A stretch of 64,000 nt of DNA from Cyclobacteriaceae bacterium (GTDB lineage: Bacteria; Bacteroidota; Bacteroidia; Cytophagales; Cyclobacteriaceae), in assembly GCA_021604845.1 (NCBI GenBank), contig BQJT01000002.1, positions 2,495 to 66,494 of the forward strand, written 5' to 3'. Below are positions 26,635 through 54,804 of the stretch, one piece after another. The translations under genes were made by a program, and so were the position numbers. The notes beneath the pieces are model-generated. The model was not told where the DNA came from, did not search any database, and was given only the letters and a program-made list of their open reading frames with translations. Every line of letters begins with the position of its first letter. Position 1 is the stretch's first letter.

Positions 26635-26657
26635 TTGACGTCAGCTCAATTAATCGC

Positions 26658-29312
26658 GTGAAAATCTGCTGTTCATTTTTAGCCTGGAGATTTGTTTTAG
26701 TATTACTACCTTCCGGGCTTTTAGGTTGTATGTCGGATAGAACAGGGAATGTGTTGTTAACTGAAAAAGCAGTTGAACGACTAGATTTAAAACAAAACTC
26801 ATTCTTTGCATTTGCCGAACTCCGGGATAACCCTCTCAAATGGTTTGATTCAATTCCCAAGGAGAAAGTTTCGGAAAGGAGTTACCGGGGTGTTTTTGAA
26901 ATGTCTGCTCAACCAGGTGAATATTATGTTTATCAGGTTGGGGTATGTGCAATCAGATCATCTGTTAAAAACCTGAAAGTGGTCTTAACTGATTTAAAGG
27001 ACAATCACGGTAACGTAATCCCTGAAGGAACAATGACTTGTTTTAACACAGGTGGCATAAATAGTCAGGGAGAACCATTTACTAAAGAAATACAAATTGA
27101 ACAAGGTCGATTACAGCCATTATGGATAGGTATTGATCTTCAAGGAGTAGAGATAGGTTCCTACTCAGGGTCCGTTTCGATTATCGCTGAGGACGAGCAA
27201 CAGCAGATACCTATTCAACTAAGGGTTCAAGGAGAAGTGGTTTCTAATCATGGATATAAGAACGACGATCGATTATCCCGCTTAAATTGGCTGAACTCAA
27301 TAAAGGGTATAAATGAGGAGGTTACCAAAGGTTTTATGCCGATTGAAATTGTCGATAATAAAGTAAGTATTTTGGCACGTACTCTGGATATTTCAGAAAG
27401 TGGACTTCCTTTATCTATTACTAGTTTTTTCAGCCCGTCTAACGAATCGTTCCAGGAAAAGGGCCAGCCCATTGTTAAGAAGCCCTTCAGGTTTATTATT
27501 GAAAAAGTGGATGGGGAAATTATTCACTTACAGCCGGGCTCATTAAATCTAATAAAGCATACGCCATCAAAAGTTGTCTGGAGTGTTCTGAACACTTCTA
27601 AATTATGTGACCTAACCGTTATTGGTCACATGGAATTTGATGGTTATGTGGAATATAAGTTAACCATTTCGGCGAAGATGCCCTTGAAAATAAAAGACAT
27701 TCGACTTGAAATTCCTGTGGAGAAAGATAAATCCGAATATATGATGGGACTGGGTCGTGAAGGAGGCTTGAGACCCACTGATTGGCATTGGAAATGGGAT
27801 GTACAGAAAAATCAGGACATGCTTTGGGTTGGAGCAGTGAATGGAGGACTAGGAATTAAATTAAAAGCTAAGAACTACAGACGACCTTTAGTAAATATAT
27901 ACTATGAATTTTCACCATTAATTATGCCATTATCATGGGATAATAAAGGTGAAGGGGGAATAGAAATGGTTGAAACATCCGGGGGTATTAATATAAGTGC
28001 TTATTCTGGAAGCAGAGAGTTAGCGCCTGGCGAACAATTGGATTTCAATTTTGAATTACTGATAACACCATTCAAGTTGATCGATAAAACGAAAAAATAT
28101 GGAGATCGCTATTATGCAAATCATCTTTCCAAATCATTTGAGAAAATTAAACTTGCAAAGCAGCTAGGTGCAAATATCATTGATGTACATCATGCAGAAG
28201 ACATTTATCCATTTATAAATTATCCATATCTGGAGGATTGTTCGGAGGAATTGACCCAATTAGCAAAGAATGTACACGATAATAATTTGCGGATGAAAGT
28301 GTACTATACTACAAGACTGTTGACAAAAAACGCACCTGAATTCTGGGCCTTTAGAAGTCTCAACAATGAGATCATTTTTCCTGGCCCGGGCAATGAAACA
28401 CGCACCGAAGCCAGATACCCAAACGGTCCACATCAATGGTATATCGAAAATCTTAGGGAGAAATACATCCCTGGATGGTTTGTTAACGTTGATGGGGGAA
28501 AATTCAAGGATGAATTGGATTTGTCAATTGTAACTACCCCTGATAGCCGCTTAAACAATTTTTACATCGCCGGACTCGATTGGATGTTAAGCAACATGGA
28601 CATTGATGGAGCTTATATCGATGATACCGCCCTGGATCGTATAGCGCTACAACGGGCAAGGAAGGTGATTGATAGCTACAAATCAAATGGGAGGTTGGAC
28701 TTGCACAGTTGGAATCATTTCCATCGATGGGCAGGATATTCAAATAGCTTGAATTTGTACATGGATTTGTTGCCTTATTTTGATCAGCTTTGGATTGGGG
28801 AAGGAAGGGACTATGACCGTGATCCGGATCATTGGCTGGTAGAAGTTTCGGGTATTCCCTTTGGTTTAAGTAGTCAAATGCTCAAAGATGGCGGAAATCC
28901 CTGGCGCGGTATGGTATATGGAATGACCAATCGAGCCGGCTGGAAAGGCAGTACTCCTCCTACTGCTATTTGGCAATTCTGGGATACTTACAAGATTCAA
29001 AACAAAGAGATGACTGGATATTGGGATAGAAACAATCCTATAACCTGCAATAATAAGATGATAAAAGCCTCCACTTACAAAGGTAGCACAGAATCGATTG
29101 TTTCTGTGGCTAACTGGAGCGACAAGGATCAACGGATAATATTGAATATTGATTGGGATAAGTTAGGTCTTGATCCTGTAAAGTCAGATATTTTTATTCC
29201 TGGAATTCCAGATTTTCAGGATCAACATATGCTTGTTTCATTAAAGGATTTAACTGTCCCGGCAAACAAGGGCTTCTTAATAATACTGAAAAATAGATCT
29301 GAAAAGATATGA
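26658..29312 (+). CDS. Large lipoprotein with a glycoside-hydrolase-like TIM-barrel C-terminal half (family uncertain)
   Basis: The tracked ORF starts at ATG 26568 and overlaps the upstream gene by 67 nt. The in-frame GTG at 26658 gives VKICCSFLAWRFVLVLLPSGLLGC, a signal peptide plus lipobox. The C-terminal half (IDVHHAEDIYPF...MDIDGAYIDDTALDR) looks like a GH-like TIM barrel. Confidence 0.55.
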   Translation: MKICCSFLAWRFVLVLLPSGLLGCMSDRTGNVLLTEKAVERLDLKQNSFFAFAELRDNPLKWFDSIPKEKVSERSYRGVFEMSAQPGEYYVYQVGVCAIRSSVKNLKVVLTDLKDNHGNVIPEGTMTCFNTGGINSQGEPFTKEIQIEQGRLQPLWIGIDLQGVEIGSYSGSVSIIAEDEQQQIPIQLRVQGEVVSNHGYKNDDRLSRLNWLNSIKGINEEVTKGFMPIEIVDNKVSILARTLDISESGLPLSITSFFSPSNESFQEKGQPIVKKPFRFIIEKVDGEIIHLQPGSLNLIKHTPSKVVWSVLNTSKLCDLTVIGHMEFDGYVEYKLTISAKMPLKIKDIRLEIPVEKDKSEYMMGLGREGGLRPTDWHWKWDVQKNQDMLWVGAVNGGLGIKLKAKNYRRPLVNIYYEFSPLIMPLSWDNKGEGGIEMVETSGGINISAYSGSRELAPGEQLDFNFELLITPFKLIDKTKKYGDRYYANHLSKSFEKIKLAKQLGANIIDVHHAEDIYPFINYPYLEDCSEELTQLAKNVHDNNLRMKVYYTTRLLTKNAPEFWAFRSLNNEIIFPGPGNETRTEARYPNGPHQWYIENLREKYIPGWFVNVDGGKFKDELDLSIVTTPDSRLNNFYIAGLDWMLSNMDIDGAYIDDTALDRIALQRARKVIDSYKSNGRLDLHSWNHFHRWAGYSNSLNLYMDLLPYFDQLWIGEGRDYDRDPDHWLVEVSGIPFGLSSQMLKDGGNPWRGMVYGMTNRAGWKGSTPPTAIWQFWDTYKIQNKEMTGYWDRNNPITCNNKMIKASTYKGSTESIVSVANWSDKDQRIILNIDWDKLGLDPVKSDIFIPGIPDFQDQHMLVSLKDLTVPANKGFLIILKNRSEKI

Positions 29313-29397: not shown

Positions 29398-30207
29398 TTG
29401 CTTAATATGATATTTTCAGATCTAAGTTATGAGATAATAAATAAGCAAGCTGAAGGTAATATTTCTGCGGTTTTACCCCTGGGAGCCATTGAACAACATG
29501 GACCTCATTTGGCAGTATCTACCGATACCAGTCTGGTTACGAGAATTGCTAGTCAGGCTGAAAAATTACGACCTGACAAAATATTACTGTGCCCCACGCT
29601 ACCTTTTGGTTCCAGTCATCATCATTTACAATTTGGAGGCACATTGAGTTTGTCAATCACCACTTACACCCAGGTTGTAGTAGATTTGGTAGAATCGTTA
29701 GTACAGAATGGCTTTAACAGAATAATTCTATTAAACGGGCATGGTGGTAACATCGTACCGGGTAAACAAGCACTTGCTGTTTTGAACGATAAGAACGACA
29801 AGACAAGTACATCTAATATTGTATTAGCAACATATTGGGAATTGGCTGGGGATGCGTTTACCAAGGGTAGCCTAATGGAAAGCCCAGCGCTTAGTCACGC
29901 TTGTGAGTATGAAACAAGCTTGCTTCTGCATCTATTTCCTGAAAAAGTAAACATGAAAAAAGCTGAACGAGCTACCAGACCAGACCCTAACTGGTATATA
30001 CCATATGAGGAAGAAAGTCCGTACAGGGGTGTTAGCACTCACAAGCCCACGCAGTTTATCTCGAATAATGGGAGTAGTGGAGAGCCTCAACTAGCTACTA
30101 CAGAAAAAGGCAAATATTTGTTTGATCATGCTGTACAATGCCTGGTTAAATTCGTTGATTCTTTTTGTAACTGGCCGTTCCTAATAAATTTAAAAAGCAA
30201 TGAATAA
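29398..30207 (+). CDS. Creatininase-family amidohydrolase
   Basis: The motif LPLGAIEQHGPHLAVSTD is the family signature. The likely true start is the ATG at 29407; the tracked start at 29398 is TTG. Confidence 0.78.
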   Translation: MLNMIFSDLSYEIINKQAEGNISAVLPLGAIEQHGPHLAVSTDTSLVTRIASQAEKLRPDKILLCPTLPFGSSHHHLQFGGTLSLSITTYTQVVVDLVESLVQNGFNRIILLNGHGGNIVPGKQALAVLNDKNDKTSTSNIVLATYWELAGDAFTKGSLMESPALSHACEYETSLLLHLFPEKVNMKKAERATRPDPNWYIPYEEESPYRGVSTHKPTQFISNNGSSGEPQLATTEKGKYLFDHAVQCLVKFVDSFCNWPFLINLKSNE

Positions 30208-30301
30208 ACTAGAAATTCGACCGAATCTGGTTCTTAAAATTATTTCTTTAAACCATATTATGGGGTCCATGGATTTAATGTTAGCCTGTTAATATTTTAA
30301 A

Positions 30302-31255
30302 ATGAAGGACATTAATGAGATAGGCATTGTTGGTCTTGGTATCATGGGAAGCAGCATAGCAACTTGTTTGTTGGCTCAAGGTTACAAAGTGACTTGTTTG
30401 ATCCAGGACTTAAGTACTACTCAACAAGCAAAAGATAGGATACTAGGGAATCTCAAACAGTTACACCACGAAGCACTGATTTTGGTTGACCCAAATCGAG
30501 TGTTGTCCAACCTGTTTGTAACTGATGACATAAAGAATTTGGGTCATCATGAGATAATTATCGAATCCATAGTTGAAAACCTTGAAGCGAAGAAAAGAGT
30601 CTATTCTCAACTGGAAAAGGTGTTGTCGTCAAATGCCATAATTGGGAGCAATACTTCAGGAATTCCTGTATCCATACTACAAGAAGGAATGGTTCATCCT
30701 GAGCGGTTAATTGGTATACACTGGGCAGAGCCCGCACATGTAACAAGATTCATGGAAGTGATCTGTGGTAAAAACTCCAGTCTTAAATTTGCCAAAAAGG
30801 TAATTGAACTTGCTTCTAACTGGGGAAAAGAACCTACGTTGGTGAAACGCGATATCAGGGGATTTATTTCCAACCGTTTAATGTATGCCATGATGAGAGA
30901 AGCCTTTTACCTGGTAGAGAAAAAATACGCAACCTATGAAGATATTGACCGGGCCTGTAGGAATGATTTAGGCGCCTGGATTACTCTTGCCGGCCCATTC
31001 AGATTTATGGATTTAACTGGGATACCAGCGTACCTTTCAGTAATGAAGGACTTATTTCCAGAATTGTCGAATTCAAACGTTGCTCCTGATTTTATAGAAA
31101 AACTTGTGTCATCAGGAGCAAGGGGAGTAAGCAATGCACATGGATTTTATCAATACACCGACAAATCTGCAGACCGGTGGGAAAAGAAATTTCATAAATT
31201 CAGCTACGATATTAGAAAGTTGTCTGAGAAGTATTCGACCGATCAAGACTCATGA
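30302..31255 (+). CDS. 3-hydroxyacyl-CoA dehydrogenase-family NAD-dependent dehydrogenase
   Basis: 317 aa with Rossmann motif IGIVGLGIMGSSIA. SNTSGIPV and IGIHWAEPAH are typical of the 3HCDH family. Confidence 0.82.
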   Translation: MKDINEIGIVGLGIMGSSIATCLLAQGYKVTCLIQDLSTTQQAKDRILGNLKQLHHEALILVDPNRVLSNLFVTDDIKNLGHHEIIIESIVENLEAKKRVYSQLEKVLSSNAIIGSNTSGIPVSILQEGMVHPERLIGIHWAEPAHVTRFMEVICGKNSSLKFAKKVIELASNWGKEPTLVKRDIRGFISNRLMYAMMREAFYLVEKKYATYEDIDRACRNDLGAWITLAGPFRFMDLTGIPAYLSVMKDLFPELSNSNVAPDFIEKLVSSGARGVSNAHGFYQYTDKSADRWEKKFHKFSYDIRKLSEKYSTDQDS

Positions 31256-32391
31256 TTAGGGACACCACAATTAGTCGAATTACAGCTACCGAGGTAATAG
31301 TCCCTGCAAAACCTGGAACTCTAAATTCGGGCTCAGTCTTGGATACCGACACTGTATTTGCTAAGAAACTCTTAACTGGGAATAGCTGGGTTGATTTTGC
31401 AAATCAACCGAAATGGATTATTCAGATCTGGTTGGCGAATGGTCTTGTGGGTATCGGAGAAACTTACAGGAACGCTAAAGAATTACCCTTGAAGGCAGGT
31501 TTGAACCAACTTGCTGGCAAAGATGTGATGAATCTTAACTGGAGAAAGTTACCGATAGAAAATCTCAGAATTTATGAAGCGTTTGAAACGGCCATATTGG
31601 ATGTTGCTGGTAAATACTTAGGAGTACCTATATGCCAGCTTTTAGGAGGAGCCAATAGAGATCGAATTGAATGCATGGGCTGGACTGGAAGAAGAACTCC
31701 AAAGGATGCAGCTTCGAAAGCATTTGAGGCAATGAAAAAAGGGCATAAAGTTTTCAAATTCAAATGTTCCAATGACGATCCAGTTCGAATGTGGCTGGAA
31801 AAAATCAAACAAAAATGTGGGACAGGAATTAAAATTGTTTTGGACCCAAATCAAAGATGGAAAGATATTAGTACCACACTTAAAATGATGGAAGGAGTTG
31901 ACACGCAGCAAATTTTTTGTCTTGAAGACCCCATATTACATGAGGATTTTGAAGGGTATAAAGTTTTGAGAAAATCTTTGGGGGTTCCAATTTTCAGGCA
32001 TATATCCTTACCATACGACCAGGATATTAGGGATATTTTCTCATTAATTAAATTAGATGCTGTTGATGGGTACAATTTTAATGGCCCCGCTTTCAACTCC
32101 ATTTTATTGGCTGAAATAGCAAATCTTCAGGGAAAAGGATGTTGGAGAGGATCAGAAGTGGACCTTGGCATTTCCGAAACAATGGCAATGCACATAGCAC
32201 GGGCGAGTCCAGGTTGTAGTTTACCTTCGGATATATTTGGAGAACTCGTCCGAGTGGATGATCTAATCGAAACACCCATATCCTTTGAAAACGGATTTGC
32301 TATCCCACCTCAGGGAGATGGACTAGGTACGAACTTGGATCTGGTTGCCTTAGAGAGGTATGGTACAGGTAAAATTATTAACACAAACTAA
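31252..32391 (+). CDS. Enolase-superfamily enzyme (mandelate racemase/muconate lactonizing type)
   Basis: 379 aa with FKFKCS (K-x-K), VLDPNQRW and CLEDP metal-ligand motifs. Its start overlaps the upstream stop (ATGA). Confidence 0.78.
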   Translation: MIRDTTISRITATEVIVPAKPGTLNSGSVLDTDTVFAKKLLTGNSWVDFANQPKWIIQIWLANGLVGIGETYRNAKELPLKAGLNQLAGKDVMNLNWRKLPIENLRIYEAFETAILDVAGKYLGVPICQLLGGANRDRIECMGWTGRRTPKDAASKAFEAMKKGHKVFKFKCSNDDPVRMWLEKIKQKCGTGIKIVLDPNQRWKDISTTLKMMEGVDTQQIFCLEDPILHEDFEGYKVLRKSLGVPIFRHISLPYDQDIRDIFSLIKLDAVDGYNFNGPAFNSILLAEIANLQGKGCWRGSEVDLGISETMAMHIARASPGCSLPSDIFGELVRVDDLIETPISFENGFAIPPQGDGLGTNLDLVALERYGTGKIINTN

Positions 32392-32468
32392 GCTGAATTG
32401 CACCAAAGTATTACCTTATAACCTTTATAGCAATTAAAACAAGTATTAAAAAACATCTGAGCAGTCCA

Positions 32469-33392
32469 ATGAATGTGAATAACAATAGTAATGATTTGCA
32501 TGGTGTGGTCCCAATTATCCCCACCCCTTTTGATAAGAATGGTGAGATTGATGAAGAAGGGATAAGAAGGTTGGTTGATTTTGCAATTTCGAATGGAATT
32601 ACCGCTGGTTGTCTGCCCGCTTATGCAAGTGAGTTTTATAAGCTAGCCGAAGAAGAAAAATTACAAGTAGTTAGGATTGCAGTTAGCCAATCCTCAGGTC
32701 GAATGAAAGTGGTTGCTCAATCAAATCACCCGGCTCTTAATATTGCAATCAAACTGGCACAGGCGAATGTGGATGCAGGTGCTGATGTGATATCTTTAGC
32801 TGTTCCACGGATGTTCGACCTTCCGGAGGATTCCATCTACGAGTATTTGTCAGAATTTATGCGGTCTGTTTCCGAAACACCGGTATTAATTCAGGACTTT
32901 AATCCTGGAGGATCATCTATTAGTGTTTCACTTATCCGGAGATTAAAGGATGAAAATCCAAATTTTAAATACCTAAAACTTGAAGAACCACTAGCTGCAC
33001 AAAAGTTTGAGGAAATAATTAACCTGACCCAGGGTCAGGTTAAACTATTTGAAGGGTGGGGAGGCTTGTATATGATGGAGTTAATACCACTGGGTATTGC
33101 GGGAATCATGCCTGGCCTGGGAGTATCTGATATTTTACAAAGAGTATTTGATCTCAGAGTGAACAATAAAAATGATCAGGCCTTTAATTTGTTTGAAAAA
33201 GTTATGCCCCAAATTTTCTTTTCACTGCAAAATATGGAGTTATTCCATTTCATCGAAAAGGATCTACTGGTGGCGAGAGGAATACTGCAGGGTAGTTCAG
33301 TTCGCAAAATGGCCTATAAACCTGATAACGCTACTTTGTCTTACATTAAAGAGCTAAATGAACGAATAGTAAAACTATCCCGTACTCTATAG
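32469..33392 (+). CDS. Dihydrodipicolinate synthase/N-acetylneuraminate lyase-family class I aldolase
   Basis: 307 aa. The N-terminal GVVPIIPTPFDKNGEIDEEGIRRLVDF is the family pattern. Confidence 0.82.
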   Translation: MNVNNNSNDLHGVVPIIPTPFDKNGEIDEEGIRRLVDFAISNGITAGCLPAYASEFYKLAEEEKLQVVRIAVSQSSGRMKVVAQSNHPALNIAIKLAQANVDAGADVISLAVPRMFDLPEDSIYEYLSEFMRSVSETPVLIQDFNPGGSSISVSLIRRLKDENPNFKYLKLEEPLAAQKFEEIINLTQGQVKLFEGWGGLYMMELIPLGIAGIMPGLGVSDILQRVFDLRVNNKNDQAFNLFEKVMPQIFFSLQNMELFHFIEKDLLVARGILQGSSVRKMAYKPDNATLSYIKELNERIVKLSRTL

Positions 33393-33462
33393 TGCTTATG
33401 ATTAAAATGCTGGAGGGGTACTGAAAAAATTGTTTCTATAGGTGGTATTTATTTGAAAGAAC

Positions 33463-34596
33463 ATGCGAATCAGAATTAATAAAATTTCGGCCTCAATCTG
33501 TGAACACCCCTTAGATGACAAATTCGTTATTGTTTCGAACATTGGTGTCCATAGGAGGTCCAGGTTTGTCCTGGTGGAAATACAAAGTTCTGATGAAATT
33601 ACCGGTTATGGTGAAGGGGCAACCACTGCGATATGGAGTGGAGAGACTGCTGAAACTGCGAAATCGATTGTGGAAAACATTTTTGCCCCGAATCTTGAAA
33701 ACCAATATTTTGATCACCCTGGTGAAGTCTCATCGATAGTTAATGAGCTAGCGGTTGGTAACCCATTTGCGAAAGCCGCAGTAGATACAGCTTTTTGGGA
33801 TCTGTGGGCTCGCACGCAATGCTCCAGGGTATCAGATCTCGTTGCAGATCGCAGGCCAATTGAATCCATTCCTACTCGTGCTAGTATAGGGGTTTATAAC
33901 ATTCAGCAAACAGTAAGTATAGCTACTGCTTTTTGGGAGGCGGGAATTCGGGTATTAAAGTTTAAAGTGGGGGTTCCACCTCATGATGATGTTGCCCGGC
34001 TAAAAGCGGTTAGGGAAGAACTAGGTGATGATCCGGTGTTTACAATAGACCCTAATGGAGGTTATAGCAGTAGAGATATTGCCGTAGCTGCTATCGAGGC
34101 ACTTTTACCCTTTAACTTAAAGTTTGTAGAGCAGCCTACGCCTAGAGATCGCATCCAGATGTTGGCAGATGTACGTAGGAGAATTCCAGTTCCAATTATT
34201 GCTGATGAAAGCATATTCACTAAAGGTCATCTGTATGAAGCCTTGGATTGCGATGCGTTTGATATATTGTCGGTTTACCCGGGGAAGAATGGTGGGTTTA
34301 CCAGTTGCCTGGATATGGTAGAAACAGCGAAAAAATACGGGAAAGCGTGCGTGCTTGGGTCTAACCTGGAAACCGACCTGGGGCAAGCTGCAATGGCCAA
34401 CCTGGCCGCCGGCCTGGAAGCTTTTCCCGTTGAAGAAATAGCTGGTGATCTGGGGTCTTGTATGTATTACAAAGATTCTTCGGTAACGAACCCACTAGCC
34501 TTATCAAATGGCCGAATTAATGTTCCCGAAGGTATTGGGTTTGGGGTTTCTCCAATTACATCTGAAGGGAATTTAAAATTGAAAAATATATGTTGA
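33463..34596 (+). CDS. Enolase-superfamily enzyme, MLE subgroup-like (racemase, epimerase or dehydratase)
   Basis: 377 aa with LKFKVG (K-x-K), TIDPNGGY, VEQP, IADES and YPGKNGG motifs. Confidence 0.82.
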   Translation: MRIRINKISASICEHPLDDKFVIVSNIGVHRRSRFVLVEIQSSDEITGYGEGATTAIWSGETAETAKSIVENIFAPNLENQYFDHPGEVSSIVNELAVGNPFAKAAVDTAFWDLWARTQCSRVSDLVADRRPIESIPTRASIGVYNIQQTVSIATAFWEAGIRVLKFKVGVPPHDDVARLKAVREELGDDPVFTIDPNGGYSSRDIAVAAIEALLPFNLKFVEQPTPRDRIQMLADVRRRIPVPIIADESIFTKGHLYEALDCDAFDILSVYPGKNGGFTSCLDMVETAKKYGKACVLGSNLETDLGQAAMANLAAGLEAFPVEEIAGDLGSCMYYKDSSVTNPLALSNGRINVPEGIGFGVSPITSEGNLKLKNIC

Positions 34597-35306
34597 TCGA
34601 TAGTCACGCGATGCTTGGGAAAGAAAATCACCATTCGTTGGAGGAACGAGAACTTATACGTAGAATGGATTTACATAAGGTGGATAAAGCCATTGTCCGA
34701 CCTATGGGGTCGGAGCTTATTGTTGAGAATAAGTTAGGAAACAACCGTGTCCTTGCAAATGGGTCCCGTTTATTGGCATTAGTTAGTGTCAATCCCTGGT
34801 TTGGGGATAGCGCGTTGGATGAACTTAAAAGATGCTATGATTCTGGTGCTGTCGGGTTGTTTTTACATCCAGCGCGCCAGGGCTTCTTCCCGGTAGAACC
34901 TATTGCAATTCCGGTACTTGAACTTGCTTTTTCGTTTAGGTGGCCGGTCATGTTTCATACAGGAACTTATATTTACTCCGACCTTCTTGCTGTAGGAGAG
35001 GTTGCACGTGCTTACCCGGATCAATTAATTATTGCTGGATTTGGAGGCTATGCTGATATGTGGTTTGAACTGCCTGACCTCTTTGATGAAGTTGAAAATC
35101 TCTATTTGGATACATCTTTATTGTTTAGCCATAATGTCATCAGCGTAATATCAAAAATAGGAAGCTCCCGAATATTGTTTGGAAGTGGTGAACCTAGAAA
35201 CAATTATGCAGTGCATTTTGAAGCATTAAAACGTCATAGCTTATCGAAAGAAACCATTTCAGCTATTATGGGAGACAATGCTAAAAGAATATTTAATATC
35301 AAATGA
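34590..35306 (+). CDS. Amidohydrolase-2-family metal-dependent hydrolase (lactonase/decarboxylase-type TIM barrel)
   Basis: 238 aa with N-terminal MLIDSHAML. Its start overlaps the upstream stop (ATGTTGA). It is paired with a paralogue downstream. Confidence 0.7.
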   Translation: MLIDSHAMLGKENHHSLEERELIRRMDLHKVDKAIVRPMGSELIVENKLGNNRVLANGSRLLALVSVNPWFGDSALDELKRCYDSGAVGLFLHPARQGFFPVEPIAIPVLELAFSFRWPVMFHTGTYIYSDLLAVGEVARAYPDQLIIAGFGGYADMWFELPDLFDEVENLYLDTSLLFSHNVISVISKIGSSRILFGSGEPRNNYAVHFEALKRHSLSKETISAIMGDNAKRIFNIK

Positions 35307-36064
35307 TAATAGATTTTCATACACATCTGGATGAATCCTGGATTGGCAACAAATTGATGCCTGAGCAGACATTTTTGGACCTTATGAATCGCTATGAAGT
35401 TGAGGTGGCCTGTATATTTACCCTGGAAGGATTCTATGGTAACTGCTCTATGCATAATGACAATCTGGCTGAACGAGCAAGGAGAAACCCACAACGGCTC
35501 GTCCCTTTTGCAACTGTAAATCCTAAACTTGGTGATCAGGCAGTTAACGAACTGGAACGGTGCTTAGCCAATCCACTATTTCGCGGGGTGAAATTCCATA
35601 CCTGGCTACAGGCAATTGCTCCCTCAATGGTAAAAGAAACCATGATAAAACTTCTAAAATGTGCTGCAAAACATAATGTACCAGTGATTTTTCATGATGG
35701 GACACCTCCTTATGCAACGACTTTTCAAATTGCTGCTTTGGCTCGTTGGGTGCCAGCTGCAAAAATTATTCTGGGTCATTCCGGGTTGTCAGACTATATT
35801 GTAGCGGCCGGGCAATTGGCAGGAGAATTGGATAACCTGTATTTATGTCTGACTGGACCTAAAAGTGGAGAGATTAAGTTTTTAGCTGATACTGCAGGTG
35901 TAGACAAGATGGTTTTTGGCTCGGACCTCGGATTTTCTGATTGGAGAATGTTGCCGGAATGCATTGATTACGTACTTCAATCAGGCCTGCATCCTCAATC
36001 AATTAGCAAAATATTTTATAGCAACGCAGTTGATCTACTTGATTTAAAGAGAAGACCATTGTAA
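35303..36064 (+). CDS. Amidohydrolase-2-family metal-dependent hydrolase
   Basis: 253 aa with the N-terminal IIDFHTHL metal motif, HDG and a later GSD motif. Its start overlaps the upstream stop (ATGA). Confidence 0.78.
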   Translation: MIIDFHTHLDESWIGNKLMPEQTFLDLMNRYEVEVACIFTLEGFYGNCSMHNDNLAERARRNPQRLVPFATVNPKLGDQAVNELERCLANPLFRGVKFHTWLQAIAPSMVKETMIKLLKCAAKHNVPVIFHDGTPPYATTFQIAALARWVPAAKIILGHSGLSDYIVAAGQLAGELDNLYLCLTGPKSGEIKFLADTAGVDKMVFGSDLGFSDWRMLPECIDYVLQSGLHPQSISKIFYSNAVDLLDLKRRPL

Positions 36065-36170
36065 CGCGATTAATCAAAGTCCATTGCCTAGTTTATAACG
36101 ACAAAGAGAAAAGATGACATTATTTAAAGGCATTGTAATTTTAGTGAACTCAATATACTAGAGACGTACT

Positions 36171-37361
36171 ATGACTATCAACAAACAGAGATTACGGGAG
36201 TTGTCGGAATTGTATAAAAATGAACTTCTGTCAAATGTTATTCCTTTTTGGATGAAGAATTCAGTGGATAAAGAATGCGGAGGTTATTTTACGTGCCTGA
36301 CAAGGGATGGAAAAGTATTTGATTCAGATAAATTCATATGGATGCAAGGTCGTCAAGTATGGTTGTTTTCAATGCTATATAACCGGTTAGAGCAACGACA
36401 GGAATGGTTGGACATGGCTATTCATGGTGGGGAGTTTCTAAAAAAATATGGACACGACGGGAAACTTAATTGGTATTTTTCTTTAACCAGAAAGGGAGAA
36501 CCCCTGGTGGATCCTTATAACATATTCTCGTATGCCTTTGCGGCCATGGCATTTGCACAGTTAGCTGTTGCCACGAAAAGTCAGGAGTATGCAGATATTT
36601 CGGTAAGAACTTTTGAGATTATTTTATCAAAGGTCGACAATCCGGAAGGGAACTGGACCAGGTCACATAGGGGCACCAGAAGTATAAAGTACTTTGGGTT
36701 GAGAATGATCCTTTGTAACCTTTCATTAGAACTTGAAAAAGTGGTAGACCAGTCGCTATTGATTCAGACTGCAGAAAAAAGTATCCGTGAAATCATGGAA
36801 GAATTTTATCGACAGGATTTGGATATAGTTGTTGAAAATGTGGCTAAGGATGGAGCGCTTATCGACACATTTGACGGAAGATTGGTGAATCCAGGACACG
36901 CTATTGAGGTTATGTGGTTTATAATGGATTTAGCTAAGAGATTAAGTAATCCGGAGATTATAAATAAGGCCAACCAAATAACCCTTAGCATGTTAGAATA
37001 TGGTTGGGACAAGAAATTCGGGGGAATCCTTCACTATATAGACCGTTTAGGTTACCCTACACAGCAATTGGACTGGGACACAAAATTATGGTGGGTACAT
37101 ATTGAATGCCTGGTAACCCTGTTAAAGGGTTATCAATATACAGGTTGCACTGAAAACTTGGAATGGTTTGATACAATACATCAATATACCTGGAAACATT
37201 TTAGGGATGAGAAACATGGTGAATGGTTTGGTTACCTAAATAGACAAGGCGAGATCCAGTTGTCTCTCAAAGGAGGAATATGGAAAGGTTGCTTTCATCT
37301 TCCAAGAGGGCTGTACCAATGTTGGAAGATATTGGAAAAAAATTCCCAGGTTAACAGTTAA
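36171..37361 (+). CDS. AGE-family epimerase/isomerase (N-acylglucosamine 2-epimerase fold)
   Basis: 396 aa. FWMKNSVDKECGGYFTCLTRDGKVFDSDKFIWMQGRQVWLFS is the typical AGE N-terminal pattern. Confidence 0.86.
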   Translation: MTINKQRLRELSELYKNELLSNVIPFWMKNSVDKECGGYFTCLTRDGKVFDSDKFIWMQGRQVWLFSMLYNRLEQRQEWLDMAIHGGEFLKKYGHDGKLNWYFSLTRKGEPLVDPYNIFSYAFAAMAFAQLAVATKSQEYADISVRTFEIILSKVDNPEGNWTRSHRGTRSIKYFGLRMILCNLSLELEKVVDQSLLIQTAEKSIREIMEEFYRQDLDIVVENVAKDGALIDTFDGRLVNPGHAIEVMWFIMDLAKRLSNPEIINKANQITLSMLEYGWDKKFGGILHYIDRLGYPTQQLDWDTKLWWVHIECLVTLLKGYQYTGCTENLEWFDTIHQYTWKHFRDEKHGEWFGYLNRQGEIQLSLKGGIWKGCFHLPRGLYQCWKILEKNSQVNS

Positions 37362-37446
37362 AAACCTTAATTGATAAAACTAGAACCTTTAATTTATCTC
37401 TTCCGACCAATTCGAAATATAGATTTTAACATTAGGTAAGTATAAA

Positions 37447-39204
37447 ATGAAAGAAAAAGCACAAAAGGAAGCAGAGAAGTTTCTTAATAAAGAAAAGCAG
37501 TTTCATCTAGGGGTGTTACCAACCGAACAATCCAACCCCAAGACGCATAATTTGGACAGCACATTCAATTCCAACCCTTCCGAAGGTGCAAGAATGTTAT
37601 TGTCTGTTGATTGGGACGTCCATAAAATGGCCGAAAGGGTGCTGCTTGAACAAGAGTATCATACTTTGGTTGATACCGGTGTAAGGGCAATCCTCGAAGG
37701 GAAAAAAATTGTATTGTCAGGTTGCGGGGCAACCGGCCGGCTTAGTATTCTACTAGAGTCCATGTGGCGCTATTATTTTAAATCTCTTACAGTCAGGCAT
37801 CCGAAAATTTATTCAAAGACCAGAAAGTTTGAGAATGCGGTTTTTAGTATTATGACAGGGGGAGACTACGCACTTATTCGATCAGTTGAACATTTCGAAG
37901 ACTACCAGGAATTTGGAAAACAGCAGGTAAGAGAAATGCAAATAAATGCTGGAGATGTGTTGATTGCAATTACTGAAGGCGGTGAAACTTCATCCGTATT
38001 AGGTACTGTAATAGAGTCAGCAGAGCGTGGGGCATTGCCGTTTCTTGTTTACAATAACCCAACGGATATCCTTTGTAAGTATATCGACAGATCTCGAATC
38101 GTTATTGAAGATCCGAGAGTTACAGTAATTGACCTTTATTGTGGGCCGATGGCCGTAGCAGGGTCGACCCGGATGCAGGCTACAACTGCAGAACAGTTGA
38201 TTGTTGGTGCCGCCTTAGAAACGATTCTTTCCAATATTTTCATACAGGTCCTTTCTCAGGACGAATTGTCTTTATTAAACATTGGCAAGACAAACTACTC
38301 GGATTTGTTCAAAGCTTTACTTATTGATTTGCTGGCTGAAAAGAACTTGAAAACTATCAGTGAACTCATGCTACTGGAAAGGAGTGTATATGAGGAAGAT
38401 GGATTAGTTACTTATTTCGCAAATGAGTTCTTATTGGATATTTTTACTGATACCACAGAAAGGGCCCCTACTTTTGCTATACCGCCGTTTAAAAAGCTAG
38501 ATGATCATACTTCACCTCCATCATGGGCTTTTGTGAAAAACCCGACTCTTACCACCAATAAGGCTTGGGATAAGGTTCTTGGCCGGGTTCCGCGATGTTT
38601 GAATTGGACCAGAGACCTGTATTACTCCATGGGTGCACTTCCTGCCTTAGCCGATTCGCCCCCTCAATTGGATAAGTCACAACTCTTAAAATTCAGAATT
38701 GGTAATGAAGAAGATACTACGCGCTTATCAAAAACCCACAATGCTGCAATTAGTATTGTTGGGAATACAGACATTGAAAGCACGGAGTATAATGCCTACA
38801 AATCTGCATTTAATCATCATGCCTCGGAGTTTCAACAAAAATATAGGATAACGATTGGTAATAATCAGGAGGATTCAGATTATAAAGTCACGTGTGCTCT
38901 GAAACCTTCGCTTTTGAACCTCATGGAACATATGGCATTTAAGCTTGTACTAAATACAGTATCTACTGGAACTATGACATTGATGGGTAGAGTAACTGGT
39001 AACTGGATGAGTTGGGTGGAAGTATCAAATAAAAAACTTAGAGATAGAGGAATCCGATTAATTTCTGAAATCTGTGGATTAAATTATCAAAACTCATGCT
39101 ATAAGCTTCATGAAACTCTTGAAGAATTGAAAGCTACAAAGCTGGATAGTTTGTCCCCGGTACAATACACGATAAAGAAAATAAAAGAAGGTGAGAATGT
39201 CTGA
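37447..39204 (+). CDS. Long (585-aa) SIS-domain protein of the MurQ etherase / glucokinase-regulator (GCKR) family
   Basis: LPTEQSNPKTHNLD resembles the MurQ N-terminal TE-x-N-x-x-T-x-LD motif. SGCGATGRLS resembles the SIS phosphosugar loop. It is roughly twice the length of MurQ, as in the two-SIS GCKR proteins. Confidence 0.6.
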   Translation: MKEKAQKEAEKFLNKEKQFHLGVLPTEQSNPKTHNLDSTFNSNPSEGARMLLSVDWDVHKMAERVLLEQEYHTLVDTGVRAILEGKKIVLSGCGATGRLSILLESMWRYYFKSLTVRHPKIYSKTRKFENAVFSIMTGGDYALIRSVEHFEDYQEFGKQQVREMQINAGDVLIAITEGGETSSVLGTVIESAERGALPFLVYNNPTDILCKYIDRSRIVIEDPRVTVIDLYCGPMAVAGSTRMQATTAEQLIVGAALETILSNIFIQVLSQDELSLLNIGKTNYSDLFKALLIDLLAEKNLKTISELMLLERSVYEEDGLVTYFANEFLLDIFTDTTERAPTFAIPPFKKLDDHTSPPSWAFVKNPTLTTNKAWDKVLGRVPRCLNWTRDLYYSMGALPALADSPPQLDKSQLLKFRIGNEEDTTRLSKTHNAAISIVGNTDIESTEYNAYKSAFNHHASEFQQKYRITIGNNQEDSDYKVTCALKPSLLNLMEHMAFKLVLNTVSTGTMTLMGRVTGNWMSWVEVSNKKLRDRGIRLISEICGLNYQNSCYKLHETLEELKATKLDSLSPVQYTIKKIKEGENV

Positions 39205-39250
39205 ACCAAGTATAGGTAGGAATAATGATTATTAACTAATTAACAAGGAT

Positions 39251-40210
39251 ATGAAAGTTGTTATAATTGGCGGGACTGGACATATAGGCACCTATTTAGT
39301 CCCTCGATTAGTCAATGCAGGACATGAAACAATAGTAGTCAGCAGGAATAAGAAACATCCTTACTTACCCCATTCTTCCTGGAACTCAGTGAGGCATGTT
39401 GAGATGGACCGTGTTGAGATGGAAAAAGATAATCTTTTTGCAACCCAAATACTCACACTAGCACCTGATGTTGTAATTGATCTAATTTGTTACACTCCTG
39501 AAAGTGCAAGAAATCTTGTTGAGGTGTTTCAAGGGAAAATAGCGCATTTAATTAGTTGTGGAACTATTTGGGTACATGGATATAGTGAACAGGTTCCAAC
39601 CAAGGAAACTCAACCAAGAAATCCATTCTGCCAATATGGTAAAAATAAAGCAGCCTGTGAAGAGTACTTACTTTCCGTATCCCGCGATACGGGATTTCCA
39701 GTGACCATATTGCACCCGGGACACCTGGTGGGACAAGGCTGGAAACCTCTGAATCCCGCTGGAAACTTTAATCTGGTAACCTTTAAAAGAATAGCTCGTG
39801 GGGAGGAAGTGATTTTGCCAAACCTGGGCCTGGAGACCGTCCATCACGTTCACGCTGACGATGTGGCACAATCTTTTATAAAAGCAATGGACAATCGAAG
39901 TAAGGCCATAGGAGAAAGTTTTCATATTGTTTCCGAGCAAGCATTAACTTTACGTGGATATGCTATTGCAATGGCAGCTTGGTTTGGGCAGAAGCCATTG
40001 TTAAAATTTCTTCCTTGGGAAAGTTGGAAGAATACGGTTGAAAAGGATGACGCTAATGCAACTTGGGATCATATTGCCCATAGCCCGAATTGCAGTATTG
40101 CTAAAGCCCAAAAGCTATTGCACTATAGTCCACGTTATAGTTCGTTAGAATCGATTTATGAATCCATTCAATATCTGATCGATAACAATCAATTAGATAT
40201 AACCAACTAG
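39251..40210 (+). CDS. NAD-dependent epimerase/dehydratase-family protein
   Basis: 319 aa with Rossmann motif VIIGGTGHIGTYLV. Confidence 0.82.
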   Translation: MKVVIIGGTGHIGTYLVPRLVNAGHETIVVSRNKKHPYLPHSSWNSVRHVEMDRVEMEKDNLFATQILTLAPDVVIDLICYTPESARNLVEVFQGKIAHLISCGTIWVHGYSEQVPTKETQPRNPFCQYGKNKAACEEYLLSVSRDTGFPVTILHPGHLVGQGWKPLNPAGNFNLVTFKRIARGEEVILPNLGLETVHHVHADDVAQSFIKAMDNRSKAIGESFHIVSEQALTLRGYAIAMAAWFGQKPLLKFLPWESWKNTVEKDDANATWDHIAHSPNCSIAKAQKLLHYSPRYSSLESIYESIQYLIDNNQLDITN

Positions 40211-40284
40211 TTATTGATATATAAGAGAAAGCCACATCGTAGCCCGATGGGATTTATCCTGTAACCTATGAGATATTTAAGAGT

Positions 40285-41529
40285 TTGATTGTGAAAAATA
40301 AGATTGATTATAAATGGGAAGTGTTGGCCTTATTGTGGGTTGCTTTTTTCCTCAACCAAGCTGATCGGCAAGTTTTTAATGTCGTTTTACCCTTGATTAA
40401 GGCCGACTTAGATTTAACTGATGTACAGATTGGTTTGATAGCAACAGTATTTAACTTAGCCTTTGCTGTATTGGTGCCATTATCGGGATATATTGGCGAT
40501 TTATACAGTCGAAAGTGGATCATCGTAGTGAGTATTTTATTCTGGAGCATAGCCACCATGTTTACCGGACTTAGCAATGGGTTAATAATGCTGGTGCTTA
40601 CACGAAGCATTGCCACCGGCGGGGGTGAAGCGTTTTTTGCACCTGCAAATTTTGCACTTCTGGCAAATTATCACAAGAATACCAGAGCCTTTGCCATGTC
40701 GGTCCATCAGACCTCTTATTATATTGGAATCATAGTCAGCAGTTATTTAGCTGGTTATATCGGGCAGCTTTATGGTTGGCGAAACGCTTTTTATATTTTT
40801 GGTGGGGTAGGGGTAATACACGGTTTGGTACTGATATTTAGATTAAAGGATAAAGTCAAACCTGACAAGAAAGAAAAACAAGGTATTAGTTTTTGGGAAG
40901 CAGTAAGAATTGTTTTCAATACTCCTACAGCTTTGTTATTGACCATGGCATTCTGTGGTTTGGTGTTTGTACTGGTTGGATATTTGACCTGGACTCCCAC
41001 CTATTTATTTGAAAAATTTGACATGAGCCTTTCAATGGCAGGATTTAATTCGATGTTTTATACACATTTAATGGCATTTATTGGTATCCTGATTGCGGGA
41101 AAGTACTCCGATAAGATAGCACAAAAACAACCAGGGAAACGGCTGTTGATGCAAGGCCTTGGTCTTATATCCGCTGCTCCGTTTATCGTTTTAATGGGTA
41201 ATTCTGAAATATTGCTAATGGTTTATATCGGATTGGCTGGATTCGGTTTTGCCCGGGCATTTTTTGATGCAAATACATATGCCATATTGTATGATGTCAT
41301 TCCCGAAAAATACCATTCTTCTGCTTCCGGTATTATGATTACTATCGGGTTTGCAGTGGGTTCAACAGCACCTTTGATTCTGGGTTACATGAAACCTTTA
41401 TTGGGGCTTTCTTTTGGGATATCACTTCTGGCGGTTATTTGGGTGATTTCTGGGATCCTATTGATAATAGCCTACAAGTATTTTTTTGATGAGGATTATG
41501 CCCGAAACCAGGACCAGTTAATTACATAA
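40285..41529 (+). CDS. MFS transporter
   Basis: 414 aa with about 12 TM segments. GYIGDLYSRKW resembles MFS motif A. The start is TTG (40285) or GTG (40291). Confidence 0.88.
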   Translation: MIVKNKIDYKWEVLALLWVAFFLNQADRQVFNVVLPLIKADLDLTDVQIGLIATVFNLAFAVLVPLSGYIGDLYSRKWIIVVSILFWSIATMFTGLSNGLIMLVLTRSIATGGGEAFFAPANFALLANYHKNTRAFAMSVHQTSYYIGIIVSSYLAGYIGQLYGWRNAFYIFGGVGVIHGLVLIFRLKDKVKPDKKEKQGISFWEAVRIVFNTPTALLLTMAFCGLVFVLVGYLTWTPTYLFEKFDMSLSMAGFNSMFYTHLMAFIGILIAGKYSDKIAQKQPGKRLLMQGLGLISAAPFIVLMGNSEILLMVYIGLAGFGFARAFFDANTYAILYDVIPEKYHSSASGIMITIGFAVGSTAPLILGYMKPLLGLSFGISLLAVIWVISGILLIIAYKYFFDEDYARNQDQLIT

Positions 41530-42568: not shown

Positions 42569-42589
42569 AGTCCAGCCTCGAGCTGGACT
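42569..42589. terminator. Hairpin between convergent genes (ParB-like gene and metallophosphoesterase)
   Basis: AGTCCAGC (42569-42576) pairs with GCTGGACT (42582-42589), an 8-bp stem with a 5-nt loop and AT-rich flanks. Confidence 0.45.
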
Positions 42590-52438: not shown

Positions 52439-52935
52439 GGCTACAATTCGCCTTCTATTTTGCAGGGATTCGGATTACTGATGTGCTTTGCATGAGATGG
52501 CTGGACTTCAAAGATGATAGACTACAATACGTGATGCACAAGAACAACAAACCAGTGTCATTAAAGATACCCGAGAAAGCCAAGGCCAGTTTGAAATTCT
52601 ATGAACAAGAAAAAAAAGCTTCAAATGATTTTATCTTTCCGGATCTCAAAAAGGCCAATCCTAGATACAAGCGGGATCTATTTATAAAAACGCGCACGGC
52701 AACTAAACGATTTAACAATTACCTCAAACAGATTGCAACTCTAGCCAAAATTGATAAGAGTCTAAGCAATCATATAGCCCGTCATTCTTTTGCAAATATT
52801 GCCGGTGATAAGATACACCCTTTAATGCTGCAGAAACTTTATCGTCACTCTGATTTGAAAACCACCATAAATTACCAGGCAAATTTTATTCATAAGGAGG
52901 CTGATGAGGCGTTGGATAGTGTGGTGGATTTTTAG
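52439..52935 (+). pseudogene. 3' remnant of a tyrosine integrase (corresponds to about residues 240-405 of the intact copy)
   Basis: The tracked 150-aa ORF (52483-52935) differs from the C-terminus of the 8619-9836 integrase at 14 of 149 aligned residues by my count. DNA homology (FAFYFAGIRITDVL) starts at about 52439, directly abutting the att remnant. The N-terminal two-thirds are absent. Confidence 0.88.
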
Positions 52936-54721: not shown

Positions 54722-54804
54722 ACACCGGGACATTTTGACGCCTTGCCCCGGTATTTTGAATTAATTATAAACAGCTAAACTAAGTTTAACCAATCGCAAA
54801 TGTA

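Follow-up and report, generated by a model that had tools for sequence, protein, structure and literature searches.

A polysaccharide utilization locus-linked operon assembled from three conserved gene modules in a marine Cyclobacteriaceae bacterium, with a possible role in the catabolism of acidic N-acetyl amino sugars

The window analysed here is a stretch of 64,000 nucleotides on contig BQJT01000002.1 of a marine Cyclobacteriaceae bacterium (assembly GCA_021604845.1). Behind a polysaccharide utilization locus (PUL) with SusC and SusD it contains eleven plus-strand genes (29398-41529; Table 1), which an initial annotation, made from the sequence alone, had read as an operon for a possibly undescribed catabolic pathway. 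The coordinates of the eleven open reading frames (ORFs) were reproduced exactly, and so were the stop/start overlaps at 31252/31255 (4 nt), 34590/34596 (7 nt) and 35303/35306 (4 nt). The gaps, said to be 110 nt or less, reach at most 106 nt inside the run. Gene calls on the source contig make two later starts more likely, ATG 29407 for the creatininase-family protein (266 aa) and 40291 for the MFS transporter (412 aa). Profile searches with Pfam and NCBIfam upheld all eleven family calls of the initial annotation, which are in gene order Creatininase, 3HCDH_N with 3HCDH, MR_MLE, DHDPS, MR_MLE, Amidohydro_2 twice, GlcNAc_2-epim, GKRP_SIS_N, Epimerase and MFS_1. The N-acyl-D-glucosamine 2-epimerase AGE was the sole protein of the eleven to reach an NCBIfam equivalog cutoff.

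Runs of co-directional genes are commonplace in bacteria. This run is regarded as more than chance because its sub-blocks recur in other genomes. No intergenic terminator-like hairpin was found between the eleven genes; the only intergenic one on the plus strand of the region lies at 42569-42589, after the gene hyp296, and terminator-like sites in the region were no more frequent than in shuffled sequences. The Bacteroidota -7 motif TAnnTTTG did not occur in the gaps from SusC to hyp296, and its sole copy was located at 15099, upstream of the ECF (extracytoplasmic function) sigma gene. Counts in a sigma-70 promoter scan, which is uninformative for Bacteroidota, equalled those of shuffled sequences. 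Co-transcription of the eleven genes is plausible from this arrangement.

Table 1 Features of the locus and its surroundings (positions in the window; the eleven genes of the operon are listed first)
Feature	Position	Strand	Setting	Description
Creat	29398-30207	+	Module A	Creatininase-family metallo-amidase; PF02633, E 1e-62, 212 bits
3HCDH	30302-31255	+	Module A	3HCDH-family NAD dehydrogenase; PF02737 and PF00725; 4-nt overlap with Eno1
Eno1	31252-32391	+	Module A	Atypical enolase-superfamily enzyme; MR_MLE
DHDPS	32469-33392	+	Module A	DHDPS/NAL-family Schiff-base enzyme, divergent; PF00701
Eno2	33463-34596	+	Module C	Canonical MLE-subgroup enolase; MR_MLE
AH2a	34590-35306	+	Module C	Amidohydro_2, degenerate metal ligands
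AH2b	35303-36064	+	Module C	Amidohydro_2, complete HxH/H/H/D ligand set
AGE	36171-37361	+	Module B	N-acyl-D-glucosamine 2-epimerase; PF07221; NF052547, 638.5 bits vs cutoff 600, full-length coverage
SIS	37447-39204	+	Module B	MurQ homologue, 585 aa; GKRP_SIS_N; two SIS domains and a lid
SDR	39251-40210	+	Module B	Extended SDR; PF01370; GxxGxxG and YxxxK motifs
MFS	40285-41529	+	Module B	MFS transporter; MFS_1
ECF sigma	15184-15855	+	PUL front end	
FecR	16075-17100	+	PUL front end	Anti-sigma
SusC	17227-20604	+	PUL front end	
SusD	20616-22322	+	PUL front end	
unk895	22452-25139	+	Upstream PUL	895 aa, N-terminal hydrophobic segment
GH109	25210-26634	+	Upstream PUL	GH109-family NAD-dependent glycosidase; PF21252 and PF01408
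GH123_N	26568-29312	+	Upstream PUL	GH123_N-family protein; PF19543, E 8e-278; true start probably downstream of 26634
hyp296	41640-42530	+	Downstream	12th co-directional gene, 110-nt gap after MFS
Metallophos	42708-43877	-	Downstream, convergent with operon	Purple-acid-phosphatase-like; weak PF16656 and PF00149 matches
ThuA fusion	44244-47195		Just downstream	983 aa; ThuA, GSDH-type (PQQ-type sugar dehydrogenase-like) domain, PKD and cytochrome c
Metallophos, 447 aa	10019-11362	+	Upstream of PUL	Phosphoesterase; 59% identical to the gene preceding AGE-SIS in locus L082 (orthologue)
adh_short	11481-12230	-	Divergent operon	
CE4	12267-13316	-	Divergent operon	Polysaccharide deacetylase
SSF	13491-14960	-	Divergent operon	Transporter

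Gene neighbourhoods were compared in two samples, one of 80 reference-genome loci around the 585-aa SIS protein and one of 80 metagenome loci seeded with Eno1, for which co-occurrence rates were computed on the 37 loci whose flanks measured 5 kb or more to either side. Among these 160 related loci the full gene order was found on this genome's own contig only, and the idea of one conserved eleven-gene set was given up. The operon is a mosaic of three separately conserved, uncharacterised modules: module A (Creatininase-3HCDH-Eno1-DHDPS), module C (Eno2-AH2a-AH2b) and module B (AGE-SIS-SDR-MFS). That these modules compose a real PUL-linked operon is a conclusion we hold with high confidence.

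Homologues of Eno1 with 65-69% identity are present in Dyadobacter, Flavihumibacter, Runella and Chitinophagaceae. The complete genomes of Dyadobacter pollutisoli and Flavihumibacter fluvii carry module A in the order Creatininase-RidA-3HCDH-Eno1-EamA-DHDPS-adh_short, with or without FAH, and with SusC/D, GH20 and GH109 adjacent. Across the 37 Eno1 loci, 3HCDH was always present (100%), followed by Creat and DHDPS (95% each), EamA (92%), adh_short (89%), RidA (76%), an AraC regulator (70%), FAH (41%), a FAD/Fe-S D-lactate-dehydrogenase-like protein (35%, 13/37), GH109 (24%), GH20 (22%) and SusC/D (14%). Module B was the only block of the window to recur in the 80 SIS loci, as AGE-SIS-SDR-MFS in Chitinophagaceae (L003/L082) and Spirosomataceae (L006/L083). 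The environmental contig L088 encodes AGE-SIS-SDR with an SSF transporter and no MFS homologue, and shorter forms are AGE-SIS in a Lentisphaerales metagenome-assembled genome (MAG) and unk895-like-AGE-MFS-SIS in a Planctomycetales MAG. AGE adjoins the SIS gene in L082, L083, L088, L042 and L071. The SDR is 68% identical in L082, L083 and L088, and the MFS transporter shares 76-78% identity with its counterparts in L082 and L083 and 41-57% with those beside SIS genes in other phyla. Module C is rarer. The 252 matches to AH2b belong mostly to Planctomycetota and Verrucomicrobiota, and the triad with its overlapping genes recurs twice, in L088, where it is joined to SSF-AGE-SIS-SDR, and in L089 (Planctomycetota), where a Creatininase and a GFO_IDH_MocA dehydrogenase follow it.

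Such a mosaic could mean that there is no common pathway and that three independent modules for different substrates were lined up behind a PUL. The full set occurs only here, genes of modules B and C are absent (0%) from the 37 well-flanked Eno1 loci, as is module A from the 80 SIS loci, and flanking integrase genes (8619-9836 and 52483-52935) hint at recent assembly. We nevertheless consider this reading unlikely in view of the pairwise links that cross phyla: orthologues of DHDPS (69-73% identity) accompany module A and, at one locus, module B; GH109 orthologues (53-76% identity; L082, L083, L086 and L087) accompany both module A and module B loci; Creat occurs with modules A and C; and module C is joined to module B in L088. 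Moreover, the Metallophos and adh_short genes that lie outside the eleven in the window are orthologues of module neighbours elsewhere, and they recur. Homologues of the convergent Metallophos gene (48-49% identity) adjoin module B in L083 and L088, while the adh_short protein shares about 50% identity with the product of the gene after DHDPS in 49 loci and is likely an orthologue of the module A SDR. The lack of internal promoter motifs and terminators in the run described above also argues against independent units.

Within module A, Creat carries the metal-site motifs EQHGPH, TD, NGHGGN and CEYETS, which are shared with its orthologues, and scores below the NCBIfam equivalog cutoffs for MftE (133 vs 172), creatininase (113 vs 235) and IolN (69 vs 245). 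A function as deacetylase or amidase is proposed. The 3HCDH gene adjoins Eno1 in 37/37 loci, and its product shares 62-63% identity with the orthologues of Dyadobacter and Flavihumibacter. The active site of Eno1 was examined by aligning a profile of its 19-member family to the solved MLE-subgroup structures 2p88, 3i4k and 4m0x. In this alignment K169-x-K171, D198 and E225 are kept, while an invariant His250 takes the position of the third metal-ligand Asp (beta5) and an invariant Tyr274 that of the beta6 Lys, so that two hallmarks of the MLE subgroup are missing. In an AlphaFold2 (AF2) model, K171, D198 and E225 lie at the ends of strands; beyond residue 250 the model is unreliable and too weak to confirm His250 and Tyr274. 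The DHDPS-family member has as its nearest solved relative an L-2-keto-3-deoxyarabonate (L-KDA) dehydratase (PDB 7c0c, 87 bits). It does not reach the cutoffs for neuraminate lyase (PRK04147, 62.3 vs 281; TIGR00683, 45.9 vs 382), KdgD (TIGR03249, 53.7 vs 374) or DapA. For Eno1, Eno2, SIS, SDR, DHDPS, Creat, AH2a and AH2b alike, solved structures are related at a remote family level at best.

Eno2 of module C, for which the initial annotation had noted an MLE-like K-x-K, bears the full signature of that subgroup, including KxK, the D/E/D ligands and the beta6 Lys; its motifs LKFKVG, TIDPNG, VEQP, IADES and YPGKNGG are kept in three genomes. Eno2 is 68% identical to the L088 copy and 55% to the L089 copy, its best characterised relatives are MLEs, N-acylamino-acid racemases, an N-acetyl-D-Glu racemase and dipeptide (Ala-Glu) epimerases, and it reaches no NCBIfam equivalog cutoff. 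A duplicated dehydratase, as first assumed, is not seen: because Eno1 and Eno2 share about 22% identity they are not duplicates, and they belong to different modules and differ in their active sites. The accompanying interpretation as acid-sugar dehydratases of the L-fuconate type failed the enolase subgroup check, in which both proteins resembled the MLE subgroup (N-acylamino-acid racemase, cycloisomerase).

The supposed lactonase duplication likewise gave way to a conserved pair in which one subunit is complete and the other degenerate. AH2a and AH2b are 27% identical, and AH2a has lost several of the ligands in all three genomes (SHA for HxH, GFGG for GHSG and GSGE for GSD). Their genes overlap in all three as well (window 34590-36064; L088 9273-10768; L089 1080-2596). 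This conservation suggests an obligate heteromer of a catalytic AH2b and a degenerate AH2a, the latter probably as a partner that is non-catalytic or needs no metal. Above noise, the PDB offers a single relative, the unannotated structural-genomics entry 3cjp, after which come weak matches to decarboxylases.

In module B, the MFS transporter obtained its best score, 118.7 bits and below the cutoff, with the anion:cation symporter (ACS)/D-galactonate transporter subfamily (TIGR00893); because this nearest subfamily comprises anion:cation symporters, an anionic cargo is implied. On the sialate symporter model TIGR00891 it scored 43 bits vs 553. The PDB matches of the SDR at E<=1e-8 were UDP-hexose 4-epimerases only, at weak similarity, and the protein could be a sugar 1-dehydrogenase or a 4-epimerase. 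These results bear on a nanLET-type catabolism of sialic or other nonulosonic acids, in which the DHDPS-family enzyme would cleave the nonulosonate, AGE convert the ManNAc-type product, the MFS transporter import the substrate and the remaining enzymes deal with unusual substituents. AGE exceeds its equivalog cutoff, and DHDPS, AGE and an acid-type MFS occur together here and in L083. From the analogy to nanLET drawn by the initial annotation, however, AGE is the one part that stood. Because the lyase (62 vs 281 and 46 vs 382 bits) and the transporter (43 vs 553) both fail the family models, this is the least supported of the alternatives and very improbable. Further points against it are that the DHDPS orthologue mostly travels with module A and without AGE, that no sialidase family was detected in the PUL, and that the neighbours of the SIS family point to peptidoglycan.

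The SIS protein itself is homologous to MurQ in its N-terminal half, and its residues 494-546 match vertebrate GKRP chains only. In a Foldseek search, its AF2 model (pLDDT 77.5, pTM 0.82) found the GKRPs of Xenopus and human as top hits over the full length (TMq 0.55-0.63 over 590-630 columns), compared with a TMq of 0.32 and half coverage for MurQ. According to this model, the protein has a GKRP-type architecture. Hadi et al. 2008 are said to have identified Glu83 and Glu114 (E. coli numbering) as catalytic in MurQ, Glu83 being the C2 base. By BLASTP against E. coli MurQ, E114 corresponds to an invariant E151 and E111 to an invariant E148; the equivalent of E83 is ambiguous. On this alignment the SIS protein is probably competent for catalysis, and a function as lactyl-ether lyase is proposed.

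Activity as N-acetylmuramic acid (MurNAc)-6-phosphate etherases has been reported for long-form GKRP homologues from Naegleria and frog, and eukaryotic GKRP has been described as having come about when bacterial murQ was duplicated and unequally fused (bioRxiv 10.64898/2026.05.08.723886). Our search returned more than 6000 relatives of the SIS protein at E<=0.001, among which short MurQ-type proteins are perhaps included. Long-form members with GKRP architecture were found in Bacteroidota, Verrucomicrobiota, Lentisphaerota, Planctomycetota and Armatimonadota. The wide occurrence of the fused form in bacteria suggests a fusion that is older than eukaryotes, or one that was transferred.

A census of genes within 7 kb of the SIS gene in the 80 genome loci found SusC in 22/80, an MLE-type enolase directly upstream in 18/80, the exo-N-acetylmuramidase NamZ in 16/80, NlpC/P60 in 14/80, a GH20C-like hexosaminidase in 13/80, a D-lactate-dehydrogenase-like flavoprotein in 12/80, an SSF transporter in 11/80 and an MFS transporter in 8/80. 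That NamZ accompanies MurQ is known (PMC8054146). The neighbourhoods of the SIS family thus carry a signature of peptidoglycan/MurNAc salvage. Sugar kinases, scanned for among kinase-sized neighbour clusters, were nearly missing, a single ROK cluster (2 loci) and L088 being the exceptions. The absence of a kinase, initially taken as a distinguishing trait of the operon, is therefore shared by nearly all neighbourhoods of the family, and a kinase could be encoded elsewhere in the genome.

D-lactate is the co-product of the etherase reaction. A protein of ~940-980 aa with FAD_binding_4, FAD-oxidase_C and 4Fe-4S domains occurs both in 13/37 Eno1 loci and in 12/80 SIS loci (e.g. L087 3676-6486 and L085 665-3595); no copy is present in the window. 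We take this domain combination to be the architecture of Dld-II-type D-lactate dehydrogenases, and its distribution hints at D-lactate or another D-2-hydroxy acid as a product of both module A and SIS loci.

A further alternative is the catabolism of muropeptide stem peptides or D-amino acids, with Eno2 as an epimerase of the L-Ala-D/L-Glu type or an N-acylamino-acid racemase, Creat and AH2a/AH2b as peptide or N-acyl amidases, and module A degrading the freed amino acid (diaminopimelate-derived or hydroxy) via imines and a DapA-like enzyme. This agrees with the best relatives of Eno2, with the MLE-type enolase gene directly upstream of SIS and next to NlpC/P60 in 18 genomes, with RidA in 76% of the module A loci and with the presence of the peptidase MftE in the creatininase family. 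Yet Eno2 is about 25% identical to the NlpC/P60-adjacent enolase, so that the two are not orthologues. Where module A is borne on a PUL, it is found with GH20 and GH109 and not with peptidases, and neither NlpC/P60 nor any other peptidoglycan peptidase was detected in the window. We regard stem-peptide catabolism as quite unlikely.

Taken together, we propose that the eleven genes provide the cytoplasmic part of an ECF-sigma/SusCD PUL that degrades acidic N-acetyl amino sugars from cell-wall-type glycans, a reading to which we assign a probability of roughly 0.4. For N-acetyl amino sugars or their acids as substrates, irrespective of the route, we see a somewhat better than even chance. Candidates are N-acetylgalactosamine (GalNAc), N-acetylglucosamine (GlcNAc) or N-acetylmannosamine (ManNAc), MurNAc-like lactyl ethers, and the C1-oxidised acids of these. 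The earlier guess of an N-acylated or ether-substituted acidic sugar agrees with four results, namely the MFS transporter nearest to the ACS subfamily, the AGE over its cutoff, the metallo-amidase and the relatives of the MurQ-like protein in peptidoglycan-salvage neighbourhoods. N-acetylhexosaminic acid is chemically an N-acetyl-alpha-amino acid, which would explain why MLE-like enolases, an amidase and RidA appear in a hexosaminidase context; amidases and RidA point to a nitrogen-bearing substrate.

In the scheme that we envisage, and whose specific order of steps is doubtful, SusC/D, unk895, GH109, the GH123-like protein and the phosphoesterases, assigned to families as in Table 1, would free monosaccharides in the periplasm (step 1). 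The anion-type MFS transporter and possibly the divergent SSF transporter would import them (step 2). Module B would then funnel the variants, AGE by interconverting GlcNAc- and ManNAc-type sugars and the SIS protein, as its homology and the peptidoglycan-salvage neighbourhoods suggest, by removing a 3-O-lactyl group through beta-elimination and hydration with release of D-lactate (step 3). Oxidation at C1 by the PF01370 SDR or adh_short and opening of the lactone by AH2a/AH2b would yield an N-acetylhexosaminate (step 4). By analogy to OngB, OngC and OngD of the oxidative chitin pathway compared below, Eno2 and Eno1 may abstract the C2 proton, leading to epimerisation and beta-elimination of the 3-substituent, while Creat would remove acetate and the enamine/imine would hydrolyse to a 2-keto-3-deoxy acid, with the help of RidA in most other genomes (step 5). 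Finally, 3HCDH and the DHDPS-family enzyme might turn this acid into pyruvate and a C3 fragment (step 6).

Another alternative is an oxidative pathway for 2-acetamido-uronic acids, with N-acetylated mannosaminuronic, glucosaminuronic or galactosaminuronic acid (ManNAcA, GlcNAcA or GalNAcA) as cargo. N-acetylhexosaminuronic acids are common in teichuronic acids, capsules and O-antigens, and the Udh-Gli-Gci-KdgD route for uronates is that of Agrobacterium tumefaciens. AGE would epimerise C2, the SDR act like uronate dehydrogenase, AH2a/AH2b like the galactarolactone isomerase Gli, Eno2 like the galactarolactone cycloisomerase Gci and the DHDPS member like KdgD or L-KDA dehydratase, with Creat as deacetylase. 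All four families of that route are indeed present (PF01370, PF04909, MR_MLE and DHDPS), SDR, AH2a/AH2b and Eno2 stand together in the window and in L088, the MFS transporter is nearest to TIGR00893, a subfamily that also includes the hexuronate transporter, and the nearest solved relative of the DHDPS member is a 2-keto-3-deoxy-acid dehydratase. However, uronate dehydrogenase is not among the PDB matches of the SDR at E<=1e-8, the KdgD models score 54 bits vs a cutoff of 374, and alpha-ketoglutarate-semialdehyde dehydrogenase is absent from the operon. Nor does this pathway offer a role to the MurQ-like protein, whose relatives stand in peptidoglycan contexts, or to 3HCDH-Eno1. It appears to us an improbable explanation.

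Several observations weigh against the amino sugar pathway that we favour. The SIS protein scores below the curated MurQ cutoffs (NF003915, 138.7 vs 168; TIGR00274, 118.4 vs 302; NF009222, 104.5 vs 255), and in the pairwise alignment E83 of E. coli MurQ falls on Met106, an invariant E104 lying two residues upstream. AH2a and AH2b show no similarity to a known lactonase in the PDB and no NCBIfam matches, and their role as lactonase comes from pathway logic and not from similarity. The scheme offers no convincing task for 3HCDH, although it is the tightest partner of Eno1; the DHDPS member stands closest to a dehydratase and not to an aldolase; and neither RidA nor EamA is encoded in the window. 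Modules A and B/C never occur together in the other 160 loci, so that their adjacency here could be coincidental. Finally, the GlcNAc route of Bacteroidota normally proceeds via NagK, NagA and NagB, which makes the benefit of an oxidative route doubtful unless GalNAc or pre-oxidised acids are the substrates.

A more specific and, in our estimate, unlikely version of this pathway is a kinase-free, undescribed route for cell-wall amino sugars. Acidic N-acetylhexosamine (HexNAc) sugars without a phosphate would lose lactyl (or similar) ethers through a bacterial enzyme of GKRP architecture, and the His/Tyr enolases, as a new subgroup, together with the creatininase-type amidase, would deaminate and dehydrate N-acetylhexosaminic acids; the two-SIS architecture, described as a eukaryotic murQ fusion, would moreover have arisen in bacteria.

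The upstream glycan-uptake locus anticipated by the initial annotation was found and comprises genes for ECF sigma, FecR, SusC, SusD, unk895, GH109 and the GH123_N protein. The protein unk895 had no match in Pfam, NCBIfam, PHROG or a PDB sequence search. Homologues of it are encoded directly upstream of AGE-MFS-SIS, with 66% identity in Chitinophagaceae (L003/L082; L003 1888-4641) and 39% in Planctomycetales (L071; 5181-7409), and the protein is a candidate for a new glycoside-hydrolase family acting on the sugar of module B. GH109 gave a weak, near-cutoff match to a Tat-signal model (17.1 bits vs cutoff 16.7, E 0.005). Gene calls for the source contig show the 67-nt overlap between GH109 and the GH123_N gene to be an artefact of how the ORFs were listed.

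Downstream of the operon, hyp296 was considered as a twelfth member and set aside: it has weak ParB-like N-terminal matches only and no homologue in related loci, and is probably unrelated to the catabolic genes. The ThuA fusion protein was likewise rejected as a recurrent periplasmic aldose dehydrogenase partner, as no homologue (E<=1e-10) was found in ~170 related loci. The two integrase genes, a full tyrosine integrase gene at 8619-9836 and a 150-aa fragment at 52483-52935, bracket a ~43-kb stretch holding the PUL and the operon, and the locus may be part of an integrative element or may have been put together by one. Two additional SusC/SusD pairs lie at 53138-61197 and 923-6018 (minus strand), one of them with its own ECF sigma/FecR and an alkaline phosphatase. 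Phosphoesterase genes are scattered over the window (7263-8225, 10019-11362, 42708-43877 and 47497-49971), and the region seems specialised for phosphorylated glycans.

Peptidoglycan, chitin and other microbial glycans contain amino sugars that make up a major reservoir of organic carbon and nitrogen in soils and oceans, and the Bacteroidota are foremost consumers of these sugars. The three modules are widely distributed and have no characterised member, module A occurring as a tight operon in many soil and freshwater Cytophagia and Chitinophagia and module C extending into Planctomycetota and Verrucomicrobiota; relatives of the long MurQ/GKRP-type protein number in the thousands and span five or more phyla. 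As targets for enzymology they offer an enolase subgroup that lacks a base and whose metal site is changed, a putatively heteromeric amidohydrolase and an amidase of the creatininase type that is found among sugar genes. Direct tests can draw on the cultured carriers Dyadobacter pollutisoli, Flavihumibacter fluvii and Arenibacter algicola. A bacterial protein of GKRP architecture also bears on the origin of the vertebrate glucokinase regulator.

In agreement with the initial annotation, which knew of no matching pathway, a literature search returned no characterised pathway with this gene set, and no paper in the searchable literature assigns the set or any of the three modules. Several known systems resemble parts of it. 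The L-fuconate/L-rhamnonate routes and Udh-Gli-Gci-KdgD share the palette of SDR, Amidohydro_2, enolase superfamily and DHDPS, and other module A loci also have an SDR, a FAH hydrolase and a lactate-dehydrogenase-like ending. Unlike in those routes, the enolases here are MLE-like and do not belong to the MR, ManD or GlucD dehydratase subgroups, and the equivalog threshold of no known pathway enzyme is reached. With nanLET of Bacteroides fragilis the operon has in common AGE, a DHDPS-family enzyme and an MFS transporter in one Bacteroidota operon, the kinase being encoded elsewhere; it differs in a lyase and transporter that fail the models, in the lack of a sialidase and in eight additional enzymes. 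The GH109 locus of B. thetaiotaomicron was rejected as a parallel, for it uses an unrelated GalNAc-1-kinase route.

The SIS protein recalls MurQ, the murT-murK-murQ cluster of T. forsythia and NamZ salvage in its homologous N-terminal SIS domain, the invariant equivalent of Glu114 and the neighbouring NamZ, NlpC/P60 and sugar transporters, often with a D-lactate-dehydrogenase-like gene adjacent. In contrast to MurQ, it has double the length and carries both a second SIS-like domain and a lid, and a MurK-type kinase is almost never adjacent; in the window its gene is paired with AGE and SDR and not with a kinase. With GKRP it shares the full-length fold (Foldseek TM 0.55-0.64, ~600 columns) and the segment 494-546. 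It differs in being bacterial and located in catabolic operons, in an identity of ~16% and in having no glucokinase partner, and is therefore presumably an enzyme and not a regulator.

The closest parallel in logic is the Ong oxidative chitin (GlcNAc1A) pathway of Pseudoalteromonas prydzensis, in which a TonB-dependent outer-membrane receptor, a periplasmic GH20 and an inner-membrane transporter precede OngB, OngC and the RidA protein OngD on the way to 2-keto-3-deoxygluconate (KDG) (Jiang et al. 2022, PMC9537276). The deacetylase OngB belongs to the D-aminoacylases, the deaminase OngC is PLP-dependent and OngIT is an SSS transporter, KdgK phosphorylates KDG, and the handling of N-acetylhexosaminic acid has been described as akin to D-amino-acid catabolism (PMC9537276). 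The papers on Ong make no mention of a Bacteroidota version. Module A elsewhere similarly combines SusC/D, GH20, a transporter, an amidase, RidA and an enzyme abstracting the C2 proton. No enzyme, however, is homologous: a creatininase-family amidase, enolases, EamA/MFS and a DHDPS-family enzyme with 3HCDH take the corresponding places, without a kinase, and homologues of OngB, OngC, OngD and KdgK are absent from the Pfam families of the eleven proteins, so that the likeness is one of logic only. The kind of system, a PUL-linked non-phosphorylative catabolism of amino sugars with a MurQ-type lyase, is known, but not with the enzymes that would fill its roles here.

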